DNA from: Candidatus Yonathbacteria bacterium
GTDB taxonomy: Bacteria; Patescibacteriota; Minisyncoccia; Phycocordibacterales; UBA1550
Reading direction: 5' to 3'
Length of the DNA: 64,000 bases
Assembly (NCBI GenBank): GCA_003483855.1
Contig: DMXP01000006.1
Coordinates: 24,280 to 88,279 of the forward strand
This document shows positions 39,515 through 59,834 of this stretch, in pieces (the stretch's first letter is position 1; every line of letters starts with the position of its first letter). The translations under genes and the position numbers were made by a program. The notes under the pieces are model-generated. The model saw only the letters and a program-made list of their open reading frames with translations, was not told the DNA's origin and did not search any database.

Positions 39515-39524
39515 ACACCGTTAC

Positions 39525-39917
39525 CTACTTTTGATTGTGTTCGCTTTCAATCTTTCCATCAGGTCTTTGTGTGTCATCCTCAATACGAACAACATCATCA
39601 ACTTCTGGTGTGGAAACCTCCTGTAGAATAATGTCAGTTATCGCAATAACTCGATGCTTTTTTGGTGGGGGTACATTAAAAAAATCTCCTGCTTTCATTT
39701 GAAATTTCTCCACGATACCTTCATCATTTTCTAGCCAAACTTCTGCTTCACCCTCTATAATATAGTTGGTTTCTCTTTTTTTACTATGGTACTGGAAGCT
39801 CGTTCTTGTGCCTGCATTTATATAAATGCGCTTATAGCAATAGGAATCGTTTAGCTCAAGCCAAACTTCTTTACCCCACGGTTTTGAGACCTCTTTGAAC
39901 GGATTATTCTTGTACAT
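39525..39917 (-). CDS. Cupin-domain protein (phosphomannose-isomerase-type cupin)
   Basis: PWGKEVWL...Y.KRIYINAGTRTSFQYHSKKRE; 130 aa. Confidence 0.55.
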   Translation of the reverse strand: MYKNNPFKEVSKPWGKEVWLELNDSYCYKRIYINAGTRTSFQYHSKKRETNYIIEGEAEVWLENDEGIVEKFQMKAGDFFNVPPPKKHRVIAITDIILQEVSTPEVDDVVRIEDDTQRPDGKIESEHNQK

Positions 39918-40923: not shown

Positions 40924-40941
40924 TATTGTGACATTTTATCA

Positions 40942-42537: not shown

Positions 42538-43376
42538 AATTCTTTAAGAATATCTTTTACATACTTTGTCATCATTCTAAGTGGAGCTTTTATTCCTGTG
42601 TAAAGCGTAAACTGCGCAGCTGCTTGATATGTGGCCATTTCATATCCTGAAATTGTAATTTTCCCTGCTTTTTTTGCTGTTTTTATAAGCTTGGTATGCA
42701 TTGGTGAAACTACCACGTCCATTATAGCATGGTAGTTTTTAAGTTCGTCCTTATCAACGATCATGTCCTGATCTTTCGGGGTCATACCTACTGGCGTCGC
42801 ATTTATAAGTATATCAGCTTTAATTTCCTTACGAACGTTACTTGGACAATATTTTATGCTAAATTTTTTTGAAATCATGCGGGCTTTTTTCTCATCTCTA
42901 TTTGATAACGTTATTTCTTTACATAGGCCTCTTTTGAGAGCAACTATTATTGCTCTCGATGCACCGCCTGCTCCAATTATGTGGGCAGTTTTACCTTTTA
43001 TGGGGTAATATTTCTCAAGAGCCATTTCAACACCAACAACATCAGTGTTATATCCGGTAAGAATACCGTTTGTATTTACGATGGTATTTATAGCTCCAAT
43101 TTCTTTCGCGACAGGGTCTACAGCGTCTACATATTTATGTACAATTGTTTTATGTGGCATTGAGACACCGCAACCACGAATATCCAGTGCGCGCACCCCC
43201 AAAATTGCCTTATTTAAATTATCAGGAGTGGCACGAAAAGGCTTATAAATAAAATCTAGAGACAGAGCCTTGAATGTTCTATTGAATATGAGGCTTCCAA
43301 AATTTCCAGGAGCAGACGCAATTGAAATGCAGAATTTCGTATTTTTTGTAATCTTAATATTTTTCATAACAATCAA
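42534..43376 (-). CDS. Shikimate/quinate dehydrogenase family oxidoreductase (AroE-like) inside the glycan cluster
   Basis: ...SMPHK...GAINT...GYNTDVVG...GAGGASRA...; 280 aa. Confidence 0.65.
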   Translation of the reverse strand: MIVMKNIKITKNTKFCISIASAPGNFGSLIFNRTFKALSLDFIYKPFRATPDNLNKAILGVRALDIRGCGVSMPHKTIVHKYVDAVDPVAKEIGAINTIVNTNGILTGYNTDVVGVEMALEKYYPIKGKTAHIIGAGGASRAIIVALKRGLCKEITLSNRDEKKARMISKKFSIKYCPSNVRKEIKADILINATPVGMTPKDQDMIVDKDELKNYHAIMDVVVSPMHTKLIKTAKKAGKITISGYEMATYQAAAQFTLYTGIKAPLRMMTKYVKDILKEL

Positions 43377-43919
43377 TTACTGGAGAATATTTTTAAGATT
43401 ATGAGGTACTTCTAAGAACTTTTCCATTAAATGCAGGCACGCCTCCGCAACCGCTCCCTCTCCAGATTTTGCACTAGTTACAAAATCTGCTTTATTGCGT
43501 GCTAAATAAAAAGCATTTGCAGGCGCAATACTGTATGCTACATGCTCAAAAATCATCGCGTCATAAATACCATCTCCAACATATGCAGATTCACTAAGAT
43601 CAAAATTTTCTTCAAGCCACGAGAGCCTCGTTGCCTCACTTACGAGATTAAGCTTTAGCCCCATATCAATAGCAACTCTTTTTTCGGTTATTTTAAATCC
43701 TCTTTTATCTGCAGATATTGCGCAAACATTTATTAATTTACTAATCAGTTTGATGCCATCATTGTCATGTGGCCCAAAGATTTTTGCCAGTTTACCGTCT
43801 TTCGTGTATAGAAATTGGCCTGTTGTTAACACTCCATCAACATCAAGAATTAGGTTCTTGATAGTTTTTTCTTTGGCCTTCATAACCGCGATTATAGACC
43901 ATGGGGCTATATTTTGCAA
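43377..43919 (-). CDS. HAD-IIIA phosphatase, KdsC/YrbI family (sugar-acid phosphate phosphatase)
   Basis: LILDVDGVLTTG... and ...VAYVGDGIYD; 180 aa. Confidence 0.7.
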   Translation of the reverse strand: MQNIAPWSIIAVMKAKEKTIKNLILDVDGVLTTGQFLYTKDGKLAKIFGPHDNDGIKLISKLINVCAISADKRGFKITEKRVAIDMGLKLNLVSEATRLSWLEENFDLSESAYVGDGIYDAMIFEHVAYSIAPANAFYLARNKADFVTSAKSGEGAVAEACLHLMEKFLEVPHNLKNILQ

Positions 43920-44021
43920 TTTAAGTTGATGGCCACCACCATTTCGTCAAAGTAAGCATTAAATGAGAATTTAATAATTAGCCGATAAATACTTGTCCTA
44001 ACATATTTAATGTTGACAATT

Positions 44022-45572
44022 TTACTTTTCGCGCGCGATTGGAATTAATTTAACCCTTTTAAATAAAAGTTCCATGAATCGTTCTATATCTGCCCAATCC
44101 TGGGGCTCAAAAAAACCAAATAATTTATACAATGCTATATAAGTCAGTGCAGAAGTACCCCCCGCAATAAGCAGTGTTGTTAAACTAACAATGAAGTTAG
44201 CTATAAATAAGTTGAGGATTAACATTACAAAAGCAACGATAATATTATTCGTGATTATTTTTTTATAATAGCTTCTTCGGTTAGACAGGTTTAAATAACG
44301 AGTTTCAACATAAAAAAACAAATATGCTACTGGTAACACTGATATGAAATACGCCCAAGCGGCTCCCACTATTCCGTAAAGAGGCAACAGCGTAAAAAGT
44401 GCTATAGCATTAAGAATAGCCATGCACACAGAAGCAATAGATAAAAATTTTAATTTGCCGAGACCTAAAAGAAAGTTTGACAATGGCCCAAAAAGAGCGA
44501 GAATAAAATTAGTTAAAGCCAAAATAATAAGAACGCCTGATGCCCTGTCTGCAAAATCTGAACTAAGCCAATATTTCAAGATCTCATAAGAAAATGATAT
44601 CGACGTTATCGTTAGAGCTCCAGCAATTATTATCATCAGTCTAAAAGTTCTTATGTACATTGTTTTCATTCTAGATATTTCGTCTCCTCCGCTTAATTGT
44701 GACGTAGTTGGGAGCATGCTTACGGTCAAGGTATTAGTGATGCCGGGGATTTTTGCGGTTACGTTTCCAGGCATACTATAGTACGTAAGATTACTAGGGC
44801 CAACAAAAAACGGAATTACAATTTTATCAAGAGACGAGAGGGCCGTAGTTGCTATATTATTTACATATGCAATTAGTCCAAATCGGTAACAATTTATTAT
44901 TTCTTTTTTGTTCCATCCGAACTTAAAGGTTGCAATCGGTAAAAGTTTTCTCGCCTGCTGGAAAATAATTATTGAAAATACTGCTGCTACTATTAATTGC
45001 ACAATAAATATCTCGCGTATAGACCCGCCCATCTTAACCACAAACAGCATACCTAGACTAGAAAGCGTGATTGAAGTCATTCCTATCTTGTTGCTTATAT
45101 CAAAACGCTGAATGGCCGATAATATTAAGCTATATGTTGCGGTTATTATGTTAAAAAATAATATTCCACCAGCAAGTATAAACAATTTAAAATATTTCTC
45201 GTAGGCTAAAAAAGATGCCGGCAAGAAAGACGGGCCAAACAAGCCAATCATTACAGAAATAATTAAACTAAGTAGCCCAAGAATAAGGAACAGTGAGTTA
45301 GCAGAATGTGTTAGCCGCTTTATTGCTTCCTCATCTTTTTTGCCATAATAGTATGACATATACTTAAGGACTGCGACCCCAAGGCCAAGCTCAAAAAGTC
45401 CGAACAACCCTGCCGATGTGTTTATAAATAAATAAATACCATATTCTTTTACACCGAGGGTAAGGACAATTATTGGCGTTATAAAGAGAGTAAAAACGAT
45501 AGGCCAAAGATACCCCATTATGTTGTACGAACTATTTTTGAATGCTTTATATGTAAGTGAATCTTTTTCCAT
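44022..45572 (-). CDS. wzx: Wzx-type oligosaccharide flippase (MOP superfamily)
   Basis: 516 aa, about 12-14 TM helices, in polysaccharide-cluster context. Confidence 0.6.
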   Translation of the reverse strand: MEKDSLTYKAFKNSSYNIMGYLWPIVFTLFITPIIVLTLGVKEYGIYLFINTSAGLFGLFELGLGVAVLKYMSYYYGKKDEEAIKRLTHSANSLFLILGLLSLIISVMIGLFGPSFLPASFLAYEKYFKLFILAGGILFFNIITATYSLILSAIQRFDISNKIGMTSITLSSLGMLFVVKMGGSIREIFIVQLIVAAVFSIIIFQQARKLLPIATFKFGWNKKEIINCYRFGLIAYVNNIATTALSSLDKIVIPFFVGPSNLTYYSMPGNVTAKIPGITNTLTVSMLPTTSQLSGGDEISRMKTMYIRTFRLMIIIAGALTITSISFSYEILKYWLSSDFADRASGVLIILALTNFILALFGPLSNFLLGLGKLKFLSIASVCMAILNAIALFTLLPLYGIVGAAWAYFISVLPVAYLFFYVETRYLNLSNRRSYYKKIITNNIIVAFVMLILNLFIANFIVSLTTLLIAGGTSALTYIALYKLFGFFEPQDWADIERFMELLFKRVKLIPIAREK

Positions 45573-45662
45573 TTTTGAAAGTATACCATGTCATTAAACT
45601 TGAGGCATCGGCTTGAACAGGCTCCATGAAACCAAAAGAAATGCTAGAATACGGAGAACATC

Positions 45663-46430
45663 ATGAAATTTAGCATAATTACCCCAACATACAAACGACG
45701 GGACTTAATAGACCGAACCATTCAGTCAGTACTACACCAATCCTACATTGACTGGGAAATGATTATCGTAAATGATTCCCCAGATGATTCTTCGTACCAG
45801 ACGCTTCCATCTTCTCTTACTGATCCCAGAATTCACTACTATGTGAATGATGTAAACTGTGGCGTGAACTATTCGCGAAACCGTGCACTCGGTAACATTG
45901 CGAAAGATTCAGACTGGGTTATTTTTTTGGATGATGATGATTATCTCGCGCCTGATGCACTCGCAACCTTACACGAGCTCGCTATCGCGCACCCTGATTG
46001 CAAGTGGTTTGTCACCAATCGCGCATACGCAAATGAAGTGCCTGTCACAAGATATCCTGAACCGGAAACATGGTATTCGTACATAAAAGACGTTCTCATT
46101 TTAAAGCGGTGCAGAGGTGATGTAACACACTGTATAAAAACGAGCCTTCTCACCAATATTCGATATTCAAAATACATCAAGCAAGCCGAGGAATGGTTAT
46201 TTTACTATCAAATTGCTCTTCGTGAAAAAATGTTTTATCACAACCATAACAGCACACTCACCGATGGATATGATGAGGTCTCTGGGCTTAACTTCCGCAA
46301 ACGCACACATGCCGAGCAAATCGAAACACTTCGTGCGTTTATTCGCGAAGGCCACGAGCTATGCCTACTTCACCACCCAACATTTCTTATTTATTTGGGA
46401 ATGAGGATACTCCGAATTATTTTGAAATAA
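45663..46430 (+). CDS. Family-2 glycosyltransferase
   Basis: FSIITPTYKRRDLIDRTIQSVLHQSY...IIVNDSPDD...; 255 aa. Confidence 0.75.
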   Translation: MKFSIITPTYKRRDLIDRTIQSVLHQSYIDWEMIIVNDSPDDSSYQTLPSSLTDPRIHYYVNDVNCGVNYSRNRALGNIAKDSDWVIFLDDDDYLAPDALATLHELAIAHPDCKWFVTNRAYANEVPVTRYPEPETWYSYIKDVLILKRCRGDVTHCIKTSLLTNIRYSKYIKQAEEWLFYYQIALREKMFYHNHNSTLTDGYDEVSGLNFRKRTHAEQIETLRAFIREGHELCLLHHPTFLIYLGMRILRIILK

Positions 46431-46475
46431 AAAAACCCGACAAAAAATCTGTCGGGTTTTTATTAAGACTTAGAA

Positions 46476-47420
46476 CTACCGGTAGGTCTCGGATTCAATG
46501 CACTCTATGAGCCCTTGGTCGAGGGTGAAATTAGGACGCCACCCTAATTCCCTTAACCTAGAGTCATCGATAGACTGATCCTTACTTTCTTGGAAAAAAC
46601 CAAGTTTTTCAACTATTTCAATACCTCCATCGTAACCCATTAATGAACAAATTTTTTCTACCAGGCTATTTATGGAAATAGCTCCAGAGCCACCGATACA
46701 AAAAATCTCGCCGTTCTTAGCTTTTTCCTCAATGAGCAAAATGGCATCAATTAGGTCATCCACATAAACAAATTCCCTTATAGCATCTTTAACGCTGGAA
46801 TACACCTGTGGCCTTTCACCGTTGTTAACAGACCTAATCGTTGTTGGTATAACTCTGCTAATATTTGAATCATTCGGGCCATACAAATTGGGACATCGAA
46901 TAATATTTATTGGCAGATTGTAACTTGAAAAATAATTCTGAGCAACGATATCCTGACAAGCCTTAGTGCACTCGTATGTATACTTAGGTTTAAGAAGGGT
47001 CTCCTCAGTGTATGGTGATGGAGTATCTCCATACACTTTGGAAGACGTTGATACAATGATTTTTCTAACAGTCTCCATCCCCACTGTTCGAACCGCCTCC
47101 AAAAGATTAACAGTGCCCATCACATTGTTCATGTAAGCACGCACAGGCTCATCAAAACATTCCTTAAGGATGGAGTTGGATGCGAAATGATAAATAGTAT
47201 TAATCTCATGTACACTTATAATTTCACACAGAGAATCATAATCATTCAAATCCCCCTTTATTGCAACAACATTATCTGCTCCGTAGGAACGTATCGGCTT
47301 GTTGTGATGATACAACAAAACAATTTTGCCATCCTTAGTATCATCAAGCTTCAGCAATCGAGAGGTTAAACTTAACCCCATAAATCCGGCTGCGCCAGTT
47401 ATTAATATGTTGTTTTTCAT
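46476..47420 (-). CDS. NAD-dependent epimerase/dehydratase (extended SDR)
   Basis: ILITGAAGFMG Rossmann motif and ...YGPN...; 314 aa. Confidence 0.75.
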   Translation of the reverse strand: MKNNILITGAAGFMGLSLTSRLLKLDDTKDGKIVLLYHHNKPIRSYGADNVVAIKGDLNDYDSLCEIISVHEINTIYHFASNSILKECFDEPVRAYMNNVMGTVNLLEAVRTVGMETVRKIIVSTSSKVYGDTPSPYTEETLLKPKYTYECTKACQDIVAQNYFSSYNLPINIIRCPNLYGPNDSNISRVIPTTIRSVNNGERPQVYSSVKDAIREFVYVDDLIDAILLIEEKAKNGEIFCIGGSGAISINSLVEKICSLMGYDGGIEIVEKLGFFQESKDQSIDDSRLRELGWRPNFTLDQGLIECIESETYR

Positions 47421-49181: not shown

Positions 49182-49483
49182 AATTTTAATAGTATAGCAC
49201 TACAAGTCCATAAAAAGACAGGCGACGAAGTCCGCGAAGGACAATTTTTTCATACAAAATCAGCAATGACACAATGCGAGGAGAATGTTGAATGTTGAAT
49301 GGGTGAGGAAGGGTGTTATTGCATACTACGGCATCTTTAATTTTGGGTATTCAAAACCACAAATTCTGTCAAATTTACGGTTTTGGAAACCATAAATTCC
49401 GCTAATTCCCCTAAATAGGTAGATTTACGGGAGTACCGCTCCCCGAAATTGACAAAATGTGGGGAGTTTGCTATCATAAAACT

Positions 49484-50617
49484 ATGAAGATCCCAAGAAT
49501 ATACAACAATATAGAAAAATATCTTCACCCGAACAAGGTTCTGGTTATTTTTGGCCCGCGACGAGTGGGCAAAACAACTCTCATTACTGATTTCCTTTCA
49601 ACATATAAAGGAAAATATCGCTTAGAGTCTGGGGATGACATTCGAGCGCGGGAGATCCTTGGTTCAGAAGACCTTTCTTTGCTAAAAGAATACGCAACGG
49701 GATACGACCTCATTGTCATCGACGAAGCGCAACGCATACCCAAGATCGGCTGGGGGCTAAAGTTGCTTGTTGACCATGTTCCGGGGATTCGTATCATCGC
49801 AACAGGATCATCATCGTTTGAACTTGCTGGACAAGTTGGAGAACCGCTTACCGGACGCAAACACACAATGACACTCTTCCCTCTTTCAGAAATTGAGCTA
49901 CTCGCCTATTATAACAACAATTCGTATGACCTTTCTTCAAAGCTTGCCGAGCGACTTGTGTTCGGTGGCTATCCAGAAGTTATTTCTGCAAAAAATACAC
50001 TTGAGCGAAAAGATGCTCTCGGTGAAATCGTCGGGTCGTATCTTCTCAAAGATATCATGGAGTTGGACCGTGTTCGCAATACAAAGATATTGAGTAACCT
50101 TGTTCGTCTCATTGCTTTTCAAATTGGAAACGAGGTTTCGTTGACCGAAATCGCGACAACCCTTGGCATAGACAGAAAAACGGTTGCTCGGTATATTGAC
50201 TTGCTTGAAAAATCCTTCATCCTCTACAATCTTCGTGGCTTTAGCCGTAACCTAAGAAAGGAAGTGACCAAAAAAAGCAAATATTACTTTTACGACATTG
50301 GTGTCCGTAATGCCATTATTTCAAACTTCAACAATCTTTCTGAGCGTGATGATGTGGGAGCGTTATGGGAAAATTTTTTAGTTATTGAGCGACTTAAAAC
50401 ACGCGTTTACAAAAACATCTCCGCGAATGACTACTTTTGGCGCACATGGGACCAAAACGAGGTTGACTTCGTTGAGGAACGCGAAGGAAAACTTTTTGGC
50501 TATGAATTTAAGTGGAAAAAGGCAAAAGCAAAAGAGCCAAAAAATTGGCGCGGAACATACCCGGAAGCAACTTACGGGGTGATCACTCCAGAAAATTATC
50601 TCCAAATATTAGAGTAG
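49484..50617 (+). CDS. AAA+ ATPase with DUF4143 (COG1373 family)
   Basis: Walker A FGPRRVGKTT and Walker B LIVIDEAQ, with a C-terminal DUF4143-like region. Start moved to MKIPRIY; the ORF could start at 49457. Confidence 0.65.
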   Translation: MKIPRIYNNIEKYLHPNKVLVIFGPRRVGKTTLITDFLSTYKGKYRLESGDDIRAREILGSEDLSLLKEYATGYDLIVIDEAQRIPKIGWGLKLLVDHVPGIRIIATGSSSFELAGQVGEPLTGRKHTMTLFPLSEIELLAYYNNNSYDLSSKLAERLVFGGYPEVISAKNTLERKDALGEIVGSYLLKDIMELDRVRNTKILSNLVRLIAFQIGNEVSLTEIATTLGIDRKTVARYIDLLEKSFILYNLRGFSRNLRKEVTKKSKYYFYDIGVRNAIISNFNNLSERDDVGALWENFLVIERLKTRVYKNISANDYFWRTWDQNEVDFVEEREGKLFGYEFKWKKAKAKEPKNWRGTYPEATYGVITPENYLQILE

Positions 50618-50733: not shown

Positions 50734-50801
50734 CCTTAAACCCTAAAGTCAAAAAGGCCGTTGAATACTTTTCCTTTCATTGCTTTGGCGATGAGAGACC
50801 A
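50734..50801. repeat. 68-bp direct repeat, copy 1 (orphan duplicate of the GT4 gene 3' end)
   Basis: ccttaaaccctaaagtcaaaaaggccgttgaatacttttcctttcattgctttggcgatgagMgacca is repeated at 51807-51874 with 1 mismatch. Confidence 0.85.
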
Positions 50802-50868: not shown

Positions 50869-51795
50869 ATGACAGTCCAGGAAAAATTAAAGATAATACA
50901 GAGAAATACTGGCTTGAGCCAAACAGAACTTAGCAAAAAACTCGGTGTGTCTCACGTTTCCTTTAGCAAGTGGTGGAATGGGCATACTTTGCCAAGGGGA
51001 AAATCCATTCTCTTGATAGACTCTCTTTATTTGGAAGTTACTGGTCAAAAAATTATTCCAAAGGATTACTTAACTGCTAAAAAGCAGGATCTTCTCAATT
51101 ATTCAAAAAAACATGGTGATATTATTAAAGAAATTATTTCTACCCCTGATATTAGAGATCAGTTTATGTTGAAACTCACCTATCATTCAAACAGCATAGA
51201 GGGTAGTACTCTTACAGAAAATGATACTGCAGCGATTCTTTTTGATAACGTGGCTCTGCCAAACAAGACACTTGTAGAGCAACTTGAAGCCAAGAACCAC
51301 CAAACAACGCTTTTGTATCTTTTTAATCATCTCGCTAAAAAGGGTGCTATTGATGAAGGTTTGATATTAAAACTGCACAGCATATTGATGAACGGTATTT
51401 ATGATGATGCTGGATTTTACCGTAGGCACGGTGTCCGTATTGTAGGAGCGAACATGCCAACAGCAAATTACTTGAAAGTTCCGGAGTTAATGAAGGATTT
51501 AGCGCGAAATATCAAAAAAGAAAAGGCGGATGCCGTGGCTCACGCATCTATAATTCACAGTATTTTTGAGAAAATTCATCCTTTTCCAGACGGTAACGGG
51601 CGAATTGGCAGATTGCTTATGATTGCAATGCTTTTGAAAGTCAATTTTGCCCCAGCTGTAATACACCAAGAAAATAAACGACTTTATTATACATACTTGA
51701 ATAGAGCGCAGACCAAAAATGACACTAGTCAATTGGAAGATTTTGTGTGTGACGCCATACTAGACGGATTTGAAATTTTAGAGAGAAAAATTTGA
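50869..51795 (+). CDS. Fic/Doc-family protein with N-terminal XRE-type HTH
   Basis: N-terminal ...LSQTELSKKLGVSHVSFSKW... (HTH). Fic motif HPFPDGNGRIGRLL. Confidence 0.8.
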   Translation: MTVQEKLKIIQRNTGLSQTELSKKLGVSHVSFSKWWNGHTLPRGKSILLIDSLYLEVTGQKIIPKDYLTAKKQDLLNYSKKHGDIIKEIISTPDIRDQFMLKLTYHSNSIEGSTLTENDTAAILFDNVALPNKTLVEQLEAKNHQTTLLYLFNHLAKKGAIDEGLILKLHSILMNGIYDDAGFYRRHGVRIVGANMPTANYLKVPELMKDLARNIKKEKADAVAHASIIHSIFEKIHPFPDGNGRIGRLLMIAMLLKVNFAPAVIHQENKRLYYTYLNRAQTKNDTSQLEDFVCDAILDGFEILERKI

Positions 51796-51806: not shown

Positions 51807-51874
51807 CCTTAAACCCTAAAGTCAAAAAGGCCGTTGAATACTTTTCCTTTCATTGCTTTGGCGATGAGCGACCA
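51807..51874. repeat. 68-bp direct repeat, copy 2 (the authentic 3' end and stop of the GT4 gene)
   Basis: See copy 1. On the minus strand it encodes ...WSLIAKAMKGKVFNGLFDFRV*. Confidence 0.85.
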
Positions 51875-53064
51875 ATCGTATTTTTCGGCGACCAAGGTGC
51901 GTCCGTTTATGAATAGGCGGTTGCGGAGCGCTGGGTCGTCTATGAGGCGCTTTATTTGACGCGCGATGCTTTCTGGACTGTTTATATCCGCAAAAAGGCC
52001 AGTTGGCTCGTGATCTGGATTTTTGTCAGGATCAAAAAGGAAATCTGGGATACCTCCAACAGGTGTCGCAATAACGGGAATACCAGCCGCCATTGCCTCC
52101 AAAAATGAATTCCCATGTCCCTCCGAGCGCGAAGGTCTAATAAAAATATCAGACACCTTGAGATATTTTGGCATATCCTCGTGATGCACCTGACCGAGAA
52201 ATTGAACGCAATAATCATCAACGCCTTTTTCGCGAGCAAGGTTGCGAAGCATTTCCTCGTCGGGTCCTATGCCAAGAATTAAAAATTTAACATTGTGCGG
52301 AAGAAACACGAGCGCGCGAATTACCTCATCAACCGCATTTTTTGCAACCATACGCGACGTAGTAATTAGAAATATGTCGCCTGGATTCTTTCCAAGACTG
52401 TATTTCAATATTGAAAGCTCGTTCTCATAATATTCCTTTGCAAAGTGCTCCACGTTCACCGCATTTGGCACGACCTCGAGCGGTCCCACATATCCCATAT
52501 TGCGAGCGAACCCTGCAAGGTAGTTCGAAATAGTTTGAATGAAGTCCGCTCGCGCAAAAACTCGCTGTAGAAGCGGAAACGCAAACTGCAAGCGGTGTTT
52601 GATATATTCTATAGGGTCCCCCTCTTGAAGCGTAAGCAAAAAACGAACGTTTGGATTTCGCATTTTGAAAAAGAGCGCCGAGAAACCCGCATAATTTGCC
52701 ATCATTGCCCAAATGCCGTCATAGGCGTTTTTTTGTGAAGCGACTGCGCTTTTAGAAAACCCCAAATAGGAAAAAAATATTTATTGACTGAAAGTGGAAA
52801 ACGCGACAGGTCTGCAATATTTGGGTCCTTTGTTGCAAACCCTACGCGATGAACGTTCACGTTTCCTATTCGCTCAAACTTTGGGAGCGTTGAATCAAAA
52901 CGGAGCGTTACCATATCAAACACATAATCATCTCCCGAGGTTCGGTCAGTAATCTCTTTTATCGCCACCTCGGCTCCCGCAACTACATCAGGATAATACG
53001 CAAGGGAAAATATGAGTATTCGTTTCACTGATATAAGTTTATATAGAAATACCGCAAAAAACAA
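51809..53064 (-). pseudogene. GT4-family glycosyltransferase interrupted by a frameshift in an A7 (plus-strand T7) homopolymer at 52728-52734
   Basis: The N-terminal GT4 domain ORF (52702-53064, ...ILIFSLAYYPDVVAGAEVAIKEI...) and the C-terminal ORF (51809-52765, ...EGHGNSFLEAMAAGIPVIATPVGG...) overlap in different frames. One extra A (A8) would fuse them as ...SLHKKNAYDGIW.... Confidence 0.6.
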
Positions 53065-53070
53065 GCCGAG

Positions 53071-53340
53071 TTATTCAAAAAGGTCAGAGCGTGTTCCTGT
53101 GCGCACAAGGATGATATCATCGTCATCGTATTTCCAAATCAAGAGCAAGTCAAATTCTATATGACATTCCCAGCACCCTTCGTATTCCCCATGTAACTTG
53201 TGAAGTTTTGATGCTAAAGGAACATTTTTACCGAGACGAAGGCATTCGATCATCTCATAAAGCACCGCCACATCACGATTGTGGCGCACAATGCGTTTTA
53301 GATCACGATTAAATATTCCCGAAGGAAAAATCTTTCTCAT
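53071..53340 (-). CDS. yafQ: YafQ-family (RelE/ParE superfamily) toxin
   Basis: ...HKLHGEYEGCWECHIEFDLLLIWKYDDDDIILVRTGTRSDLF aligns with E. coli YafQ ...HPLQGSWKGYRDAHVEPDWILIYK...RTGTHAALF. The ATG overlaps the dinJ stop (ATGA). Confidence 0.65.
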   Translation of the reverse strand: MRKIFPSGIFNRDLKRIVRHNRDVAVLYEMIECLRLGKNVPLASKLHKLHGEYEGCWECHIEFDLLLIWKYDDDDIILVRTGTRSDLFE

Positions 53341-53621
53341 ACATGTGCGCGCCAATTCTTACCGAGTATATCAGTAAACATTGCTTCAGCTGAAGAATAT
53401 GATTTGAGATTTTCCCCAGACTTAGCATTTGCAATCGCTTTGCGCGTTTCGGCGTTTGGAATATTAAGAGAAAAAGGGATTCCTTTGTCGGTGGCAATAC
53501 GGCGATAAAATACATTGATAGCTTCAGACGGAGATATTCCTATTTTATGCAATACTGTTTCAGCCTTTTTTTTAACCGAAGGTTCTATACGAGCTCTCAC
53601 AAAAGATGTTTTTGTAGTCAT
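53337..53621 (-). CDS. dinJ: DinJ/RelB-family antitoxin
   Basis: MTTKTSFVRARIEPSVKKKAETVLHKIGISPSEAINVFYRRIATDKGIPFSL matches DinJ ...FVRARIDEDLK...ALPFDL. Start moved to the internal Met. Confidence 0.65.
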   Translation of the reverse strand: MTTKTSFVRARIEPSVKKKAETVLHKIGISPSEAINVFYRRIATDKGIPFSLNIPNAETRKAIANAKSGENLKSYSSAEAMFTDILGKNWRAHV

Positions 53622-53674
53622 ATGAGTATTGTAGCACATTTGTGCCACAATGCAAGAATTGAAATACGTGCGAA

Positions 53675-55051
53675 TTAGTGCGGTTCATTATCGTCAGTTT
53701 CCTCAATTATTTCAAAATCGTCTGCGTTTATGGTTGTCTTTTGTTCGATATTTTTAGTAAGGCGGATACCCGCTAGCGCAAGTGCTCCCAGAAACGCGGA
53801 GCCTACATACCATGGCCACAAACCTCTCTCCTGTCGTGGAGTAACTGAAGTGGCTGGCGCTTCAGAAATTGCATTCAGAGCGGACGCTTCCTGAAGTGAT
53901 GGCGCTTGCGGTGCCACACGAGTTTCCGCGCTTGCTACAACCTTCGTTTTTTCGGCAGTTTTCAAAACAGGAGCAGGGGCTTGCGAAGAAACTGCTTCAA
54001 CCTTTATTGGAACGCTTGTTCCATTTGGAAAACGAAGTTCGGGAATAATGCCAACAGGTGTGGCGAGCCCTGTTACCTCGCTGGCGAATGTTACGCTTCT
54101 GCGCGCTCCGAGAATTGTATTTTTTGGAAATGTAAAAATTTTTTCACCGCTTGCAACCTGCCAACTGGAAATATCAAGCTCGTCAGCGCCATTATTTTGA
54201 ATCGTAAAAAATGAACGCGTATTGTCACCCCCACTACTCAAAGAAAGATTCGGCAAAACAACGCGCACGAGCATCTTGTCAGTTGCAGTTAAACTTCCTG
54301 AGACAACATCGAGCACTGCGGTGTATTCACCGGGATAATAATATGTGTGCGAAACACTTTCGCCCACAGCCGACGCTCCATCGCCAAACGACCACGTTGT
54401 TTGCACGGCTCTACCAAAATTATTTTCCAGCCCAGCGATTTTCCCTTCAAAAATTATTGGCGCGCCTGCTAGCACCACACGAGTTTGCGGACCTGCCTGA
54501 GCTGTCACTTGTGGTGCTGTCTGTGTTGATGCTGTGTTTGTAGTTGTAGTTGTGTTTGTGGTTGTATTTGTTGCAACCGACTCATTTGCGCTTTGCGAAA
54601 CTGAATTCGCGACACCTGGTGTTGGTAACGCGTTCACCCATTCACCTGCCGTTATTCTTTGATAGCTCTCGCCTGCGTCAATACTTCCCCACCCGATTTG
54701 ATCAACATCTTTACCTTTTGAATCTCTAACGCGTATGGTGTTGGATTCAGTGAGCGTTATGTCTGTAACGATGTCAGAATTACTATATGAATTGCGAGAA
54801 ATTAAAAAATAACTATTTGCCTTGATTATTTTTCCATTTAGCTGGGTGCTTGATACCAATGAACCAAAACTGCTACCAGTAGCTGTTTTTCTTTGAATAT
54901 ACCAACCAGTCAAATCAACATCGGAACTACCAGAGTTATAAAGTTCTATAAATCTTTCATTTATCGGAGAAATTTGAACTTCATTAACAAACACTGTCGC
55001 AGAGACCGTCTGCGCGGAAAATAACATTAAAATAAAAATAATTTTTTTCAT
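53675..55051 (-). CDS. Secreted/membrane-anchored lamin-tail-domain (LTD) protein with Thr-rich linker and C-terminal TM anchor
   Basis: Signal-like MKKIIFILMLFSAQTVSA, then LTD motif VFVNEVQISPINERFIELYNSGSSDVDLTGWYI, a TNTTTNTTTTTNT linker and a C-terminal hydrophobic helix. Start moved to the internal Met (ATG at 55051). Confidence 0.6.
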   Translation of the reverse strand: MKKIIFILMLFSAQTVSATVFVNEVQISPINERFIELYNSGSSDVDLTGWYIQRKTATGSSFGSLVSSTQLNGKIIKANSYFLISRNSYSNSDIVTDITLTESNTIRVRDSKGKDVDQIGWGSIDAGESYQRITAGEWVNALPTPGVANSVSQSANESVATNTTTNTTTTTNTASTQTAPQVTAQAGPQTRVVLAGAPIIFEGKIAGLENNFGRAVQTTWSFGDGASAVGESVSHTYYYPGEYTAVLDVVSGSLTATDKMLVRVVLPNLSLSSGGDNTRSFFTIQNNGADELDISSWQVASGEKIFTFPKNTILGARRSVTFASEVTGLATPVGIIPELRFPNGTSVPIKVEAVSSQAPAPVLKTAEKTKVVASAETRVAPQAPSLQEASALNAISEAPATSVTPRQERGLWPWYVGSAFLGALALAGIRLTKNIEQKTTINADDFEIIEETDDNEPH

Positions 55052-55223
55052 ACTAAGTCTATGTAGCTCCTCAAACGCCTCGAGTACAAGGCGAAAACGT
55101 ATTGTTTTTTTGAGCCGTACGTCGCGCTTCAATGGACACTGCGCGACACGATTTTGCAAAATCGACGGTGAAAGAAAACCATACGTTTTCAACGAAGTAG
55201 ACGAGGATGTTTTAGGGGCGACA

Positions 55224-57173
55224 CTAATCGTCTCCGCGAAGGATTGCCGTCAGCACATCCTCGGGGACTTCGCGAGGTTTTGGAGGTTGTTCTTCACGTC
55301 TCGAATCAGCTGATTCTGAACCAGCAGGCTTCACGCCTTGGGCGAAGACTCTTGGACGTAGACTTGATTGCTCTTGGGCTACTGGAGGTGCCTTTGGCGT
55401 CGCGGTTGGTTTCTCAATTTCGCTGTCTAAAATCCCCGCTAAAGCAGCCTTGAGACCGCCTAAACTCTCTTTGGATGGGCCTTTGCTCCTTACTGGTGGA
55501 ATAGCGCCTTTTTGAGAATGACGGCTCTGTGTAAGAGTAGAAAGGCTCATTCTCTCTTCCTTGGGCTTGGGCTCCTGTGGCGCTGGTTTTTGGAAATCTT
55601 TAAATGCTTGAGCGAATGGCTTTTCAAATTTCTCAGGAGGTTTTGAATTTTCTTTTCGCGCAGGTCGCTCAAACATAGCACTGCTATCCCTTTGCACCAC
55701 AGGAGCTCGTTGGGTACTCTCCGCACGCGGTGCAGGGCGCTCGCGCGCTGGTTCTGGAGCCGGCGCTTCCATTCCTGTTCCATACCATTCGGTAATACTT
55801 TTCTCCACTTCCGCGCGTGTGTGTCCGTACAATTCTCGCGAGAACTTAATCACTTCTTCGCGAAGCGATTTTTTTGGTGGGGCAATCGGACCTAATGTTA
55901 CAGATGAAAATGGATGCGAAGCAACACCGTCAATCATGAGCTTGAGATACATTTGATATTTTCCAAGACTCACCATATCCTCTGCGGTAAAAACAGGGGC
56001 GTATTCTTTTTCCAAAACTTCTGCGTCTGGAGCGCCAACGCGAAACATAATCTGCGTACCGACATTTCCAAAAACTGCATCAGCGACTTTTTCATCCATC
56101 TGCTTGATATATTGGTGAGCAATAGTGAGCGCGAGTTTGTACTTGCGAGCTTCGGACAAAATATCGGCAAATGATTCGTTTGCGAACGATTGAAACTCGT
56201 CCACGTACATATAAAAGTTGGGAAGCCTTTTGAGTTCACCTTCGGTCAAGTCCGCGCGCGACATTGCGGCGAGGTAAATTTTTGTAATAATCATTCCACC
56301 CAAAAGAGCGGCGTTTCCTTCACCGAGTTGCCCTTTGGAAAGGTTCACAATGAGAATTTTCCGCTCGTCCATCATTTTTCGCAAATCAAAACTTGATTTC
56401 GGTTGCCCGATAATATTTCGAATGAGCGGGTTTGATGTGAATTGTCCGAGTTTGTTTTGAATTCCCGGTACTGCTTCTTTTGCATAGTTCTCGCTGTACT
56501 TTGCAAATTCATCAACCCAATACGCTTTTACCGATGGGTCCTTCACATTGTCGACGATTTTTTTCCTATACGCCTTGTCAGTAAGCATTCTGCTAACGCC
56601 GAGAAGCGTTGATTCAGGATATTCAAGGAGTGCGAGGAGCGCGTTCATCATAATATACTCCATACGCGAAGAAAAAGTTTCTGGTCCCCAAATCTTTTTA
56701 AATGCAGACATGAGTCCGTTTGCAATGAGGTGTCGCTTGTCTGGCCCTACGTCCTCCATCACATTGAAGGAAATCGGATTGTCTGTATCAAACGGCGCAA
56801 AGTAGACGACGTCTTTTAATCTCTCCGGTGGAATGTAGTCGAGAAGGAGCGCAGCTGATTTCCCGTGTGGATCTATAAATGCGATACCCTCGCCGTTTTT
56901 AATGTCCTGCACCACCATGTTTTCAATACACGTAGACTTGCCCATGCCCGTCTTGCCTATGATGTACATATGACGCGTGCGGTCTTCGGCTTTTATCCCA
57001 AATGGAACACGCTTGTTCCTGCGGTCTGTCTCCGCAAAGTACGTGATGCGATTTTTATCGTAGAGATACATAGTGTAGTTGGTAGTCACTAGTTTGTAGT
57101 GAATAGTGAGCACATAAAGTATATCACCAAACATAAACAAAAGAGAAACACGGGGGCGATGGGCAAAGCCCAT
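55224..57173 (-). CDS. TraD/VirD4/TrwB-like type IV coupling-protein family ATPase (DNA-translocating P-loop NTPase) with disordered Pro/Lys-rich C-terminus
   Basis: Walker A IIGKTGMGKST...FIDPHG, Walker B MYVDEFQSF, ...IAHQY.... Possible N-terminal TM (LLFMFGDILYVLTIHY). An alternative start lies at 57071. Confidence 0.5.
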   Translation of the reverse strand: MGFAHRPRVSLLFMFGDILYVLTIHYKLVTTNYTMYLYDKNRITYFAETDRRNKRVPFGIKAEDRTRHMYIIGKTGMGKSTCIENMVVQDIKNGEGIAFIDPHGKSAALLLDYIPPERLKDVVYFAPFDTDNPISFNVMEDVGPDKRHLIANGLMSAFKKIWGPETFSSRMEYIMMNALLALLEYPESTLLGVSRMLTDKAYRKKIVDNVKDPSVKAYWVDEFAKYSENYAKEAVPGIQNKLGQFTSNPLIRNIIGQPKSSFDLRKMMDERKILIVNLSKGQLGEGNAALLGGMIITKIYLAAMSRADLTEGELKRLPNFYMYVDEFQSFANESFADILSEARKYKLALTIAHQYIKQMDEKVADAVFGNVGTQIMFRVGAPDAEVLEKEYAPVFTAEDMVSLGKYQMYLKLMIDGVASHPFSSVTLGPIAPPKKSLREEVIKFSRELYGHTRAEVEKSITEWYGTGMEAPAPEPARERPAPRAESTQRAPVVQRDSSAMFERPARKENSKPPEKFEKPFAQAFKDFQKPAPQEPKPKEERMSLSTLTQSRHSQKGAIPPVRSKGPSKESLGGLKAALAGILDSEIEKPTATPKAPPVAQEQSSLRPRVFAQGVKPAGSESADSRREEQPPKPREVPEDVLTAILRGDD

Positions 57174-57186
57174 CGCCCCCGTGTTT

Positions 57187-58185
57187 TTATTTCACCTTCT
57201 TCTTATTAAGCATCATGAGAATAAGCCCAACCATTTTGTCTTTGTGCGTGGGGTCGCTCTCAGCAACTAGAAGTGTGATTGCCGTGAGTGCTGGCGGTGT
57301 GATACGCGTCGTATCAAGAACTTTTGCTTTTGCGAGGAACCACACGAAAGCATACGCGCCACTCCGTTTGTTGCCATCAATGAACGGATGATTTTTGATA
57401 ACGAAGTATAAGAAATGCGCCGCCTTCTCCTCGACGGTTGGGTACATATCTTTACCACCAAATGCTTGCGCGACATTACCAATGATCCCCGCGAGGCTTC
57501 CTCGCTCGCGCTCAGTCGCAAAAAGGTCAGTAGCTTCGCCTTTCGCAATGAGTGATTCTTTCAAAGTATCAAGCGCACCACCAAACATATCTGCGGTAAT
57601 TTTGACAGATTTTTTTGTCGCGCCTTTCGTCATCAGAGCATCTTTGTCGTACGCATCAAGTGAGAGCCATGTGTCAGAGAAAAGCGTGATGAGCTCAAGA
57701 ATACTCTCGGTGTCCATAGCTGTTCCAGCAGAAAGTAGCGCCTTCACATCAGCGACAGCTTTCAAAAAACCATCATAGTTTTTAGCAATGCGTGACTTGT
57801 TTATGGTGTAGCCATCAACAATATGCGCGCGGAGTGTTTTGGTTGCCCACTGGCGAAACTGAGTGGCAGTCTTTGAGTTGACTCTGTAGCCAACAGAGAG
57901 GATTGCGTCTAGGTTATAGTACTCGATAATACGTTCTACTTTACGTTTTCCTTCAGTTTGAACTGTTGCATTTTTTGCAACAGTTGACCTCGTGTCAAGT
58001 TCACCCTCTTGGTAGATATTTTTAAGATGGCGTGAGACAACAGACTTATCACGTCCAAAAACCTCAGCGATTTGATCGAGCGTCGCCCACACCGTCTCCC
58101 TACCAAAATCCCCACGAAGCTCAATAGCTCCCGACTTTGCCTGGTAGATAACGACTTCCTTTTTTATTTTTTGCAGTTTCATCAT
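57187..58185 (-). CDS. RhuM-family N-domain fused to a Fic/Doc domain
   Basis: ...IEYYNLDAILSVGYRVNSKTATQFRQWATKTL (RhuM) and HPFIDGNKRSGAYAF (Fic/Doc motif). Confidence 0.7.
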   Translation of the reverse strand: MMKLQKIKKEVVIYQAKSGAIELRGDFGRETVWATLDQIAEVFGRDKSVVSRHLKNIYQEGELDTRSTVAKNATVQTEGKRKVERIIEYYNLDAILSVGYRVNSKTATQFRQWATKTLRAHIVDGYTINKSRIAKNYDGFLKAVADVKALLSAGTAMDTESILELITLFSDTWLSLDAYDKDALMTKGATKKSVKITADMFGGALDTLKESLIAKGEATDLFATERERGSLAGIIGNVAQAFGGKDMYPTVEEKAAHFLYFVIKNHPFIDGNKRSGAYAFVWFLAKAKVLDTTRITPPALTAITLLVAESDPTHKDKMVGLILMMLNKKKVK

Positions 58186-58305
58186 TTCTAATTATATCAC
58201 AGAGGCACCAATTATTTCTGTACCTGTATGTGCCATTGTCATCTACACAAATTCGCAATATGCGTTTTTTGCATATTCTATATTAGAAATTCTATATTCT
58301 ATATT

Positions 58306-59541
58306 CTATTCTTTCAAGAGCGCCTCCACTGTATACAAATTCTTTGGGTCCCAGAGGAACCATGAGTTGAGCCCAGAGTCATAGGTTGCTTGTATTTGAG
58401 CGCGGACTTCTGTTGCGCCATAGGTGCCACCATAATTAAAATCCTGAAGCCACGGACGGAGTTTGTTCTTGTCGTATGCTTCTTTTGTATAAAGCGCGGG
58501 CGTGGATGTGCCGATGCGCTGTGCTCCAAGGTGGAGCACAGGTGTCGTCGTTGCAACTGCGCGCTCCACAGCGCGACTCATTGAGAAGTGGATCACATCA
58601 TACACGTGTTCATTTGGATTCTTCCATCCATTAAAATTTGGCGGGTAGTGAGACGGATACACCATGGGAGAGATGTAATCAAAATAAGGAAGCGCGCGCT
58701 CTAGCACCTGCCCTATGTTTAGGTCGTCGTTGTTTGTCGCAGTCATTCCAAAGAGATCCGCGGAAAGTTTTGCGCCAGTTGGGCTAAGCGCGCCGTGAAG
58801 GTGTGCGAAAAAATGCTCGAGTGCCTCGTCTTTGCTAATACCATGACCCCACGAATAATCAACATCTTTCATCGGGCCATCTGAAGGAAAACGAATGTAA
58901 TCAAAGTTGAGCTCATCAAAGCCCATCGCGTATGCCTCTTTTCCAAGGGCAACAATGTAATCCCAATATGGTTTCGCAGAGACGTCTATAAAAGAAAGCC
59001 CCTTGAAGTCCTTCCACACTGTGCCGTCGCTTTTTTTGAGCACTGCAAGCTCTGGATGAAGCTTTGTGTAGTACGGGTCTTGGAACACTGTGATGCGCGC
59101 GATCGTATAGATTCCTTTTTCGTGAAGTCGCGCGAGAAATTTTTTAAGATCTTTGGTGCGACATCCTCCACCATTATTACCTTTGAGAATCGGGTCCACG
59201 GCATCAAAAGCAATAGTTCCGCTATAATCCTTGATATCAATAATGATGCTGTTCACCTCGGTAGTGTCCGCAATATGCACAAGTTTTTCACGAAACAATG
59301 ATGTGCTTGCGGCGCAGGCAGTCATATATATTGCCTTCACGGCCTTTGGAGTTTCTATATGAGTAACTATAATTTCTGACTCCCCCTTTACAGTGACTGT
59401 AGTGGTAGCTGTAGTGCTTGTTGCTGACACTGTGTCTACTCTATACTCGACTGAAGAAATTGCTGGTATAAAAAAATAAAAGACGGAGAAAGCTCCGACC
59501 ATGGCTACACCTAAAGCAAGAATGTTTCTATTTCGTGTCAC
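58306..59541 (-). CDS. Membrane-anchored putative glycoside hydrolase (DUF4015/GHL TIM-barrel family)
   Basis: N-terminal TM, then ...AVKAIYMT...NSIIIDIKDYSGTIAFD... typical of COG1306/DUF4015. Confidence 0.5.
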   Translation of the reverse strand: MTRNRNILALGVAMVGAFSVFYFFIPAISSVEYRVDTVSATSTTATTTVTVKGESEIIVTHIETPKAVKAIYMTACAASTSLFREKLVHIADTTEVNSIIIDIKDYSGTIAFDAVDPILKGNNGGGCRTKDLKKFLARLHEKGIYTIARITVFQDPYYTKLHPELAVLKKSDGTVWKDFKGLSFIDVSAKPYWDYIVALGKEAYAMGFDELNFDYIRFPSDGPMKDVDYSWGHGISKDEALEHFFAHLHGALSPTGAKLSADLFGMTATNNDDLNIGQVLERALPYFDYISPMVYPSHYPPNFNGWKNPNEHVYDVIHFSMSRAVERAVATTTPVLHLGAQRIGTSTPALYTKEAYDKNKLRPWLQDFNYGGTYGATEVRAQIQATYDSGLNSWFLWDPKNLYTVEALLKE

Positions 59542-59834
59542 TGTATCTTTTGAGTGTTTACTATTTTTTCTTCGGGGGCAGATGGAAAAGCTTGTTCGGC
59601 ATCATCAATAAGTTTTTTACAATTACTGCAATAAACGACAGATGAAAGATAGGAAAGTACTGAAATCGCAACCCCGACTACTACAAGAAGTGGTGTGCGC
59701 ACCCACGACGGAAACCCGCCGATTGCCACGACAACGACCGCGACTCCTAATATTGTCAGTGCTGTGTGTTTGGTCATAGGGATAGTATACACGAAAAAAC
59801 AGAATGTGGAATATCGAATGTGGAATGGACTCAA
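59538..59834 (-). CDS. Small membrane protein, hypothetical
   Basis: 2 TM helices. Start uncertain; an internal Met at 59777 is possible. Confidence 0.35.
   Translation of the reverse strand: MSPFHIRYSTFCFFVYTIPMTKHTALTILGVAVVVVAIGGFPSWVRTPLLVVVGVAISVLSYLSSVVYCSNCKKLIDDAEQAFPSAPEEKIVNTQKIQ

Follow-up and report, generated by a model that had tools for sequence, protein, structure and literature searches.

The stretch of DNA analysed here (64,000 nucleotides, hereafter the window, whose positions are used throughout) belongs to a genome of Candidatus Yonathbacteria, in the class Paceibacteria of the Patescibacteria, or candidate phyla radiation (CPR). Positions 53071–58185 hold five open reading frames (ORFs), all on the minus strand. 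Two of them concern us most, an ATPase related to the coupling proteins of type IV secretion systems (T4SSs) and a surface protein with lamin-tail domains (LTDs). The five genes and their domain assignments, proposed in an earlier note made from the sequence alone, hold when the ORFs are checked and scored against Pfam and NCBIfam profiles:

57187–58185, minus strand: RhuM N-domain fused to a Doc-type Fic domain (RhuM-Doc), 332 aa (Pfam RhuM PF13310, 85 bits; Fic PF02661, 45.5 bits)
55224–57071, minus strand: VirD4/TrwB-family P-loop ATPase, similar to type IV coupling proteins (T4CPs), 615 aa, no transmembrane domain (TMD) (Pfam, NCBIfam, AlphaFold2 fold)
53675–55051, minus strand: LTD-PKD-LTD surface protein, 458 aa (Pfam LTD PF00932, 83 bits in two stretches; PKD, 41 bits)
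53337–53648, minus strand: RelB/DinJ antitoxin (Pfam PF04221, 62.9 bits; TIGR02384, 69.6 bits)
53071–53355, minus strand: YafQ/RelE-family toxin (Pfam PF15738 YafQ_toxin, 84.3 bits; TIGR02385, 55 bits)

Two start codons were corrected. The ATPase begins at 57071 (MYLYDKNR, 615 aa) and not at 57173, because the former start is common to all homologues and to an NCBI protein that is 100% identical and derives from a metagenome-assembled genome of Candidatus Yonathbacteria. The LTD protein begins at 55051 (MKKIIF, 458 aa).

The earlier note described these genes as a co-directional, closely spaced and operon-like block. The genes are indeed co-directional, but their spacing is uneven: the Fic gene and the ATPase gene are separated by a predicted terminator-like hairpin, the ATPase and LTD genes by a spacer of 172 nt. 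Nor do the five genes appear to form one unit: RhuM-Doc and the DinJ-YafQ pair were inserted separately and in certain lineages only, so that some close relatives have them and others do not. The ATPase gene is a core chromosomal gene of the Paceibacteria with a fixed position in a cell-envelope cluster.

The ATPase and its chromosomal neighbourhood

By sequence and predicted fold, the ATPase is a member of the VirD4/TrwB family. Its Pfam matches are TrwB_AAD_bind (PF10412, 36.3 bits with a cut-off of 20.5), DUF87 (30.3 bits), TraG-D_C (27.7 bits) and T4SS-DNA_transf (23.2 bits), and TrwB_AAD_bind, TraG-D_C and T4SS-DNA_transf exceed their cut-offs. TrwB_AAD_bind represents an all-alpha domain inserted in the NTPase domain, and its match spans residues 57–380. 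In the AlphaFold2 (AF2) model, which comprises residues 1–445 (pLDDT 72.5, pTM 0.77), the helices at residues 110–235 have pLDDT values of ~68–95, mostly 83–95. The best PDB fold matches found with Foldseek are DotL (6sz9), Cagβ (8dol) and TrwB (1e9s), with E-values from 5e-7 to 1e-5, and HerA and DndH rank behind them. TrwB is the best PDB sequence match as well (phmmer), aligned at Walker A and Walker B, where it carries LFIDE. The typing of the ATPase as a T4SS coupling-protein relative therefore stands on Pfam and on fold, and the check that the earlier note had asked for (TrwB_AAD_bind or HerA/FtsK) favours a VirD4/TrwB-type protein rather than an unrelated family. The principal features of the protein are as follows:

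56934–56957, minus strand: Walker A GKTGMGKS, residues 39–46, invariant in 37 homologues
56196–56213, minus strand: Walker B YMYVDE, residues 287–292; V290, D291 and E292 invariant, Y287 and Y289 in at least 90% of the 37 homologues
55227–55775, minus strand: disordered C-terminal tail rich in Pro, Ala, Glu, Ser, Lys and Arg, residues 433–615 (183 residues), recognised by composition and motif conservation
55227–55271, minus strand: terminal tail motif EVPEDVLTAILRGDD, conserved at the C-terminus of the ATPase

The N-terminal TMD of coupling proteins is missing from this ATPase, in which Walker A begins already at residue 39. No hydrophobic segment was found anywhere in the protein; the highest Kyte-Doolittle score over 19 residues is 1.33, and no such segment reaches 1.5. 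It is therefore a soluble protein by this measure. The long disordered tail postulated earlier is borne out, and it contains three conserved islands. The last of these, (K/R)E(V/I)PEDVLxx(I/L)L, is located near the C-terminus almost family-wide. A long disordered C-terminal extension with short motifs recalls the tails of TraD and DotL, which we take to be partner-binding.

Homologues of the ATPase are abundant, with more than 8000 database matches, the best 120 of them at 57–100% identity. About 200 residues are invariant across 37 sequences, and judging from these alignments the ATPase is under strong purifying selection. When one genome is taken per species, at least 595 species genomes carry a homologue. 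Synteny was counted in the best 80 loci. The conserved gene order is murD, murC, rsmI, a gene for a small protein with two transmembrane helices (2-TM protein), DUF4015, the ATPase gene, in some loci an LTD gene, and a family 4 glycosyltransferase (GT4) gene. Three homologues in public assemblies follow it, with murD, murC, rsmI, the small protein, DUF4015, the ATPase and an LTD/PKD protein followed by glycosyltransferases or epimerases; the Fic gene and the DinJ-YafQ pair are absent from these three loci. A DUF4015 gene precedes the ATPase by no more than 3 kb in 50 of 64 species loci, and a GT4 gene follows it by no more than 3.5 kb in 43 of 60. Exceptions to the gene order are the P0094 loci L003 and L004, with NTP_transferase instead of the mur genes and no DUF4015. 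In the window, the immediate neighbours are:

59538–59834, minus strand: small 2-TM protein (TM segments; conserved upstream context)
58306–59541, minus strand: DUF4015 glycosyl-hydrolase-like protein, membrane-anchored (Pfam DUF4015, 296 bits; TM segments)
51809–53064, minus strand: GT4 glycosyltransferase, split (Pfam; conserved downstream context)

The 2-TM protein has a cytoplasmic tail, and its gene overlaps the DUF4015 gene by 4 bp and keeps its place two genes before the ATPase gene when close relatives are compared. Because classical T4CP membrane domains have two TM helices, it may be considered a speculative candidate for the missing anchor of the ATPase. The GT4 gene, located 3′ of YafQ, is divided into ORFs of 120 and 318 aa by a 1-nt deletion in an A-run near 52734, and its orthologue in L091 is intact (413 aa). 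A sequencing error in the homopolymer could account for the split, as could decay into a pseudogene or phase variation at this site.

Outside the CPR, the nearest relatives of the ATPase are plasmid proteins with 27–43% identity over ~370–420 residues. Some of them adjoin relaxase or Tcp conjugation genes, and one orphan adjoins transposases. No profile of any library matches the ATPase better than phrog_5156 (209 bits), a phage protein family without an assigned function, whose positions 390–813 of 824 align with ATPase residues 12–436 (window 55764–57038). Bacillus phage G gp156 and SPO1-like phage proteins are 26–29% identical to the ATPase; the T4CP-like ATPases of large Bacillus phages seem uncharacterised. 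In PADLOC, mad8, a component of the methylation-associated defence system (MADS), matches with 66.5 bits and HerA matches weakly. The monoderm plasmid DUF87/TcpA-like coupling ATPases, phrog_5156 and mad8 are thus the closest relatives outside the CPR. Some of them are much larger than the ATPase, phrog_5156 having ~390 extra N-terminal profile positions and a Peribacillus protein having 870 aa. They sit in conjugation, phage or defence contexts, whereas the ATPase sits in a housekeeping envelope cluster.

These plasmid and phage relatives, together with toxin–antitoxin (TA) and Fic genes, which are typical passengers of mobile elements, could point to a decayed integrative and conjugative element (ICE), the first option of the earlier note. 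The ATPase would then be a leftover coupling protein, the Fic and DinJ-YafQ genes would be cargo or addiction genes of the element, and its other parts would be gone. The note had also seen no conjugation genes, and this stands for the whole 64 kb: relaxase, VirB4, VirB6 and pilin genes were not found by Pfam scans that covered essentially all ORFs of at least 110 aa. T4SS and relaxase genes are likewise missing near the ATPase among the called genes of the related loci L001–L006. The window contains no integrase and no tRNA gene, there are no repeats or att-like sites around the RhuM-Doc indel or around the 53–58 kb block, and the GC content of the block (0.42–0.48) shows no shift from that of the neighbouring kilobases (0.39–0.46). 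The ATPase is intact, extremely conserved and located at the same site between housekeeping genes in hundreds of species, and close relatives differ in the Fic gene and the TA pair without a corresponding change in the ATPase. The idea of a decayed ICE is unsupported because the flanking genes are separate insertions and the GC content is unremarkable, and with the conserved envelope synteny in addition we regard it as largely refuted.

The LTD surface protein and its pairing with the ATPase

The LTD protein starts with a signal peptide (TVSA before the cleavage site, TV after it), followed by an LTD (residues 20–141), a Thr/Asn-rich linker, a PKD domain (183–265), an LTD-like β-sandwich (269–350), an Ala/Pro/Ser-rich linker, an uncharged TM helix (412–434) and a 24-residue acidic cytoplasmic tail. 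The AF2 model contains three β-sandwich domains with the same boundaries (20–141, 183–265 and 269–350) and the helix 412–434. Compared with these domains, the lamin A/C immunoglobulin (Ig) fold gives a target TM-score of 0.67 and the collagenase PKD domain one of 0.78. The fold matches of the protein are surface-layer (S-layer) proteins (Sap), phage Hoc and Ig-type adhesion molecules, with no nuclease or DNA-binding fold among them. This predicted topology is that of a surface protein exported by the Sec pathway and held in the membrane by its C-terminal part. The membrane-anchored, secreted LTD protein of the earlier note is thereby recovered, with an N-terminal hydrophobic segment followed by VSA, LTD domains and the C-terminal helix.

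Bacterial LTD proteins such as the extracellular nuclease ExeM share with this protein an N-terminal signal peptide followed by an LTD, and a C-terminal hydrophobic anchor. The NCBIfam ExeM profile matches weakly and in the LTD part only. Unlike ExeM, the LTD protein has no nuclease or other enzymatic domain, but an LTD-PKD-LTD arrangement and a conserved acidic cytoplasmic tail. Bacterial LTDs have no established role, DNA binding included, and ExeM degrades DNA without its LTD (PMC6085458). Our literature search found no study linking LTD proteins with T4CPs.

The most distinctive part of the LTD protein is the motif in its tail:

53699–53722, minus strand: cytoplasmic tail motif DDFEIIEE, residues 444–451 (conservation profile, 115 homologues)

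Across these 115 homologues the ectodomain evolves fast, and the cytoplasmic ADDFEIIEE is among the best-conserved parts. The consensus tail of the family, DDFEI(I/L)(D/E)E, is retained in many ATPase-adjacent copies. A regular-expression scan of all ORFs in 144 loci found the motif confined to LTD-family ORFs. A phmmer search of the whole library with the 49-residue TM-plus-tail module, a short query that limits sensitivity, returned 19 representatives, almost all of them LTD-sized proteins or fragments. We considered whether the TM helix and acidic tail form a general sorting or docking tag of other surface proteins, and rejected this, as motif and module are essentially restricted to the LTD family. 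That a surface protein with a single membrane pass carries so conserved a motif on its cytoplasmic side implies a cytoplasmic partner.

The surroundings of both proteins allow another reading, in which the ATPase has been exapted for envelope or division work outside type IV secretion, for instance as an FtsK-like DNA pump at division or as the energiser of surface glycan or glycoprotein export or assembly. The LTD protein would be a glycosylated surface protein or an S-layer-like protein of the same envelope programme. Several observations agree with this: murD, murC, DUF4015, GT4 genes, epimerases and Wzx/Wzy-type genes are constant neighbours, the Thr/Asn/Ser-rich linkers of the LTD protein are typical of O-glycosylated stalks, and its fold matches include S-layer proteins. 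T4CPs, in addition, fall within the FtsK-HerA superfamily, and exaptation is allowed by the literature (PMC12102498). Synteny in a single class, however, is weak functional evidence, and it is T4CPs rather than FtsK that match best by fold and by profile. To our knowledge, no glycan or S-layer pathway employs a VirD4-type ATPase. We consider such an exaptation unlikely.

The association of the LTD gene with the ATPase gene was followed from both sides. An LTD-family gene is located directly downstream of the ATPase in 26 of the ~75 loci with room for it, or 19 of 60 when at least 3 kb of room is required. In LTD-less loci, which make up about two thirds of the related species, GT4 usually follows the ATPase directly and with equally tight spacing. 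Only 1–5 nt separate the ATPase stop from the LTD start in many loci of other lineages. From the LTD side, a metagenome scan with a 12-sequence LTD alignment gave 55 loci. All LTD homologues of at least 35% identity for which upstream sequence is present have the ATPase upstream; it is found there in 25 loci in total. The adjacency persists while the LTD proteins diverge to ~25–35% identity. More distant full-length homologues (23–32% identity), labelled Paceibacterota, Nomurabacteria or Parcubacteria (also Paceibacteria), are located beside transketolase and PfkB kinase genes with no ATPase within 5 kb. In a neighbour-joining tree of the ATPases, LTD-positive and LTD-negative loci are interleaved, a pattern that agrees with two genes adjacent in the ancestor and an LTD gene repeatedly lost or moved. 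The pairing is thus real, old and recurrent, but not obligatory. Chance adjacency, which the earlier note had left as an option, is contradicted by the presence of the pair in many other genomes; an obligate minimal pair of ATPase and LTD protein is not supported either, because most related species have no LTD gene at the ATPase and LTD homologues occur elsewhere too.

The pairing invites a further alternative, a trans-envelope module of two components, in which the TMD-less ATPase docks on the DDFEIIEE tail of the LTD protein and the two together act as a "split" coupling protein. Such a pair would move or sense a macromolecule, in DNA uptake or export or in host-cell contact, without a classical T4SS. 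In its favour, the adjacency is old and recurrent, scattered over the ATPase tree and kept despite LTD divergence, with codon gaps of 1–5 nt in many loci; the ATPase is anchorless, and the LTD protein has a conserved, family-specific cytoplasmic motif that implies a cytoplasmic partner. Against it, about two thirds of the related species have no adjacent LTD gene, and GT4 is as tightly juxtaposed there. LTD homologues with the same tail are found far from any ATPase, and the ATPase tail motif ignores the presence of LTD. Furthermore, DNA binding is not an established function of the LTD fold, ExeM can degrade DNA without it (PMC6085458), and the ectodomain resembles generic Ig arrays of S-layer proteins and adhesins. 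On balance this module is improbable, though less so than the exaptation for envelope work. The stronger claim, an undescribed CPR "split" coupling machine in which a soluble VirD4-type hexamer sits on the DDFEI(I/L)(D/E)E tail of a single-pass surface protein, is more doubtful still. If true, such a machine would tie an Ig-like extracellular sensor or adhesin to a cytoplasmic motor, and would be a minimal host-exchange device independent of a T4SS channel.

The tail motifs of the ATPase were also tried as trackers of LTD adjacency. EVPEDVL was rejected for this use, being independent of LTD presence, and EKPFAQAF is uninformative because it is restricted to close relatives, where phylogeny confounds the comparison.

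Spacers and inserted cassettes

The remaining features of the block lie in and around its spacers:

57201–58327, no strand assigned: presence/absence segment with the RhuM-Doc gene, 1127 bp (blastn against L007)
57146–57186, minus strand: strong intrinsic-terminator-like hairpin 5′ of the ATPase gene; 19-bp stem with 13 G-C pairs, then a T-rich tail
55052–55223, minus strand: structured ATPase–LTD intergenic spacer with a long hairpin, 172 nt (folding energy against shuffles)

The RhuM-Doc insertion is delimited by blastn against L007, which is 87–90% identical. Window position 58328 joins L007 position 6867 and window position 57200 joins L007 position 6885, so that L007 holds only 17 bp in place of the 1127 bp. 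L010, a more distant relative, has a RhuM-Doc cassette at the same site. The earlier reading of this gene as a Fic/Doc protein with a RhuM N-domain is confirmed by its two Pfam matches and by the PADLOC single-gene defence candidate PDC-S23, matched at full length (residues 8–329, E 2e-114); TIGR01550 DOC_P1 and the Doc-like toxin family phrog_577 match as well. The Fic motif read from the translation is HPFIDGNKRSG, of the HxFx(D/N)(A/G)NKR type, which we take as the mark of a Doc-type Fic domain.

DinJ-YafQ likewise is the addiction module that the earlier note recognised, with the antitoxin gene directly upstream of the toxin gene and a 19-nt overlap between them. It is present in L007 and L090–L092, and absent in L008 and L010. 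L095 (6706-7584) holds a different, RelE-type set (YafQ-like, DinJ-like, YafQ-like) at the same LTD–GT4 junction, which suggests that TA genes have been inserted there repeatedly and independently. DinJ-YafQ and RhuM-Doc are ordinary members of the type II TA and PDC-S23 families, respectively, and are accessory genes outside the conserved unit.

Several predicted transcription signals flank these insertions. The hairpin at 57186–57146 belongs to the native DUF4015–ATPase spacer, because it is within the stretch that aligns with L007. An extended -10-like sequence, recognised by eye, follows the hairpin ahead of the ATPase gene, and a predicted promoter-like site (53715–53687) precedes dinJ. 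RhuM-Doc and DinJ-YafQ are best read as independent insertions into the flanking spacers, each probably with transcription signals of its own. The ATPase–LTD spacer has a minimum free energy of -56.1 kcal/mol (z -3.84), and none of 200 shuffled sequences folds as well. Its hairpin is kept in the Yonathbacteria-like loci L007, L090, L008 and L094, with 8 of 44 pairs changed on both sides, and no Rfam family matches the spacer. The hairpin may serve in attenuation, processing or stabilisation of the mRNA and so set the ATPase:LTD ratio.

Two more accessory genes are located beyond the GT4 gene. A 68-nt direct repeat (99% identical; 50734–50801 and 51807–51874) represents a duplication of the GT4 gene's 3′ end and brackets a helix-turn-helix (HTH)-Fic gene (50869–51795, plus strand) with a canonical HPFPDGNGRIGR motif and a PADLOC PDC-S04/SoFic match. 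L091 and L092, both close relatives, lack this gene, which has the appearance of a cassette inserted recently with duplication of its target. Next to it, an AAA_14/DUF4143 ATPase gene (49457–50617, plus strand) matches PDC-S01, another PADLOC single-gene defence candidate, with an E-value of 2e-143. It occurs at the equivalent site in L091 and L092, and L100 has a homologue a few kb from its LTD gene. Taken together, RhuM-Doc, HTH-Fic, DinJ-YafQ and AAA_14/DUF4143 mark the spacers of the envelope locus as a small hotspot for accessory and defence genes, and such flanking spacers are of interest as landing sites for TA and candidate defence cassettes in tiny genomes. Elsewhere in the window, further toxin genes, for an AbiEii nucleotidyltransferase and for MazF/PemK (18197–18841 and 21434–21766, minus strand), lie among cell-wall and O-antigen-ligase-like genes.

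The accumulation of such genes raises the question of whether the ATPase is itself a mad8-like or HerA-like component of an anti-phage defence island, together with the Fic and TA genes. The mad8 match and the weak HerA match would agree with this, as would neighbours matching PDC-S23 (RhuM-Doc), PDC-S04/SoFic (HTH-Fic) and PDC-S01 (AAA_14-DUF4143) and the other TA and Abi genes in the window. MADS, however, is an operon of mad1–mad8 that includes a methyltransferase, and no other mad gene is found among the neighbours. The defence genes are patchy, whereas the ATPase is near-universal and syntenic in the class; its position is unchanged in L001–L006 and L008, which lack all of the flanking candidate defence genes. 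With candidate defence genes gained and lost around an ATPase that keeps its place, it is very unlikely that the ATPase itself acts in defence.

A possible role of the ATPase in trans

We lean slightly towards a composite reading of the block, in which a vertically inherited chromosomal core has been joined by separately acquired selfish and defence cassettes, and in which the ATPase acts in trans as an orphan coupling motor. On this reading, the ATPase is a domesticated member of the coupling family that lost, or never had, the N-terminal membrane domain, and the LTD gene was ancestrally located directly behind the ATPase gene, where it still is in about one third of the sampled species.

In the mechanism that we propose, the ATPase would work as a cytoplasmic, hexameric, ATP-driven motor like TrwB, Cagβ and DotL. 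Because it has no membrane anchor, partner proteins might recruit it to the membrane. The candidate contact sites are the all-alpha domain and the conserved short motifs of the 183-residue tail, which would then act like the tails of TraD and DotL. Most likely, the ATPase would couple or energise in trans a relaxase-less chromosomal T4SS of the kind present in ~80% of Patescibacteria genomes, or it would serve another envelope translocation step. The LTD protein would display its Ig-like domains on the cell surface, while its tail would bind a cytoplasmic partner, and the neighbouring ATPase is the first one to consider. Hexamer formation, the substrate, action on a T4SS in trans and ATPase–LTD contact are all steps that we infer. 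Direct docking of the ATPase on the LTD tail, in particular, is unlikely or at best doubtful, since only part of the loci join the two genes and the motif of each protein is kept or missing regardless of the other protein.

Published surveys fit an orphan ATPase that acts in trans or has been exapted. VirD4-like T4CPs number 5,713 in 2,918 of 3,035 Patescibacteria genomes, only 148 of them are near virB4, and exaptation is considered possible (PMC12102498). The T4SS cluster of S. epibionticum has no recognisable coupling and relaxase proteins (PMC10633639).

Several points weigh against this composite, in-trans reading. A T4CP without a TMD is atypical, and the AF2 model of the ATPase is moderate, with residues 313–392 poorly modelled and TM-scores to T4CPs of ~0.47. 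No T4SS gene is present in the window or in any related locus, and the cooperation of the ATPase with a T4SS is again something that we infer. In S. epibionticum, the t4cp homologue was not essential, whereas the T4SS genes were (PMC12102498). The constant neighbours of the ATPase are envelope-glycan genes (DUF4015 and GT4), which could mean a quite different role. As for the LTD protein, adjacency alone is weak evidence of joint function because gene order is conserved generally in the class; it may just mirror this conservation, and the unrelated rsmI is equally syntenic. The terminal EVPEDVL motif of the ATPase is kept with or without an LTD gene downstream. Conversely, the LTD tail motif persists as GDDFxILDE at the extreme C-terminus of distant, ATPase-remote homologues, and is absent from ~7 ATPase-adjacent copies that end just past the TM helix.

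Compared with VirD4, TrwB, TraD and DotL, the ATPase has Walker A and B at equivalent positions and a helical, all-alpha insert between them. It differs from these T4CPs in having no N-terminal TMD and no adjoining T4SS, relaxase or oriT-related gene, in being a class-wide chromosomal core gene whose members are 57–88% identical, and in its identity of only ~14% to solved T4CPs. Evidently it is one of the 5,713 orphan T4CP homologues of Patescibacteria reported by Quinonero-Coronel et al. 2025 (PMC12102498). In that paper we found no description of TMD loss, the DUF4015/GT4 neighbourhood, the tail motifs or the LTD neighbour, and the terms "LTD" and "PKD" occur 0 times in its text. What is already known, therefore, is the ATPase as an orphan patescibacterial T4CP homologue, and the TA pair and RhuM-Doc are ordinary. 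The absence of the TMD from the ATPase, its tail motif, its fixed DUF4015/GT4 neighbourhood and an LTD neighbour with a cytoplasmic motif appear to be undescribed in the literature that we searched.

VirD4-like ATPases encoded away from T4SS genes occur in nearly all Patescibacteria and raise the question of their role (PMC12102498; PMC10633639). The present locus sharpens this question for the Paceibacteria, the largest class, by offering an anchorless core ATPase with an envelope neighbourhood and a recurrent surface-protein neighbour. It also names testable partners of the ATPase, namely the LTD tail, which is invariant in a large part of its family, the upstream 2-TM protein and DUF4015. 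These partners could bear on how ultra-small epibiotic bacteria energise the exchange with their hosts.

Beyond the block, Pfam identifies housekeeping genes in the window (GatB, Obg, SecA, GAPDH, MurB, MurC, MurD and RsmI) and a large surface-glycan cluster with GDP-mannose dehydratase, epimerases, GT2, GT4 and GT11 glycosyltransferases, methyltransferases, and Wzy and MatE-type proteins. In the region ~32000–47000 the GC content is 0.32–0.38, compared with ~0.38–0.49 in most other 1-kb bins. This region encodes many GT2 transferases, methyltransferases, DUF268, sugar-nucleotide enzymes, a MatE-type protein and several ORFs without a Pfam match, and is probably a horizontally variable surface-glycan cluster.

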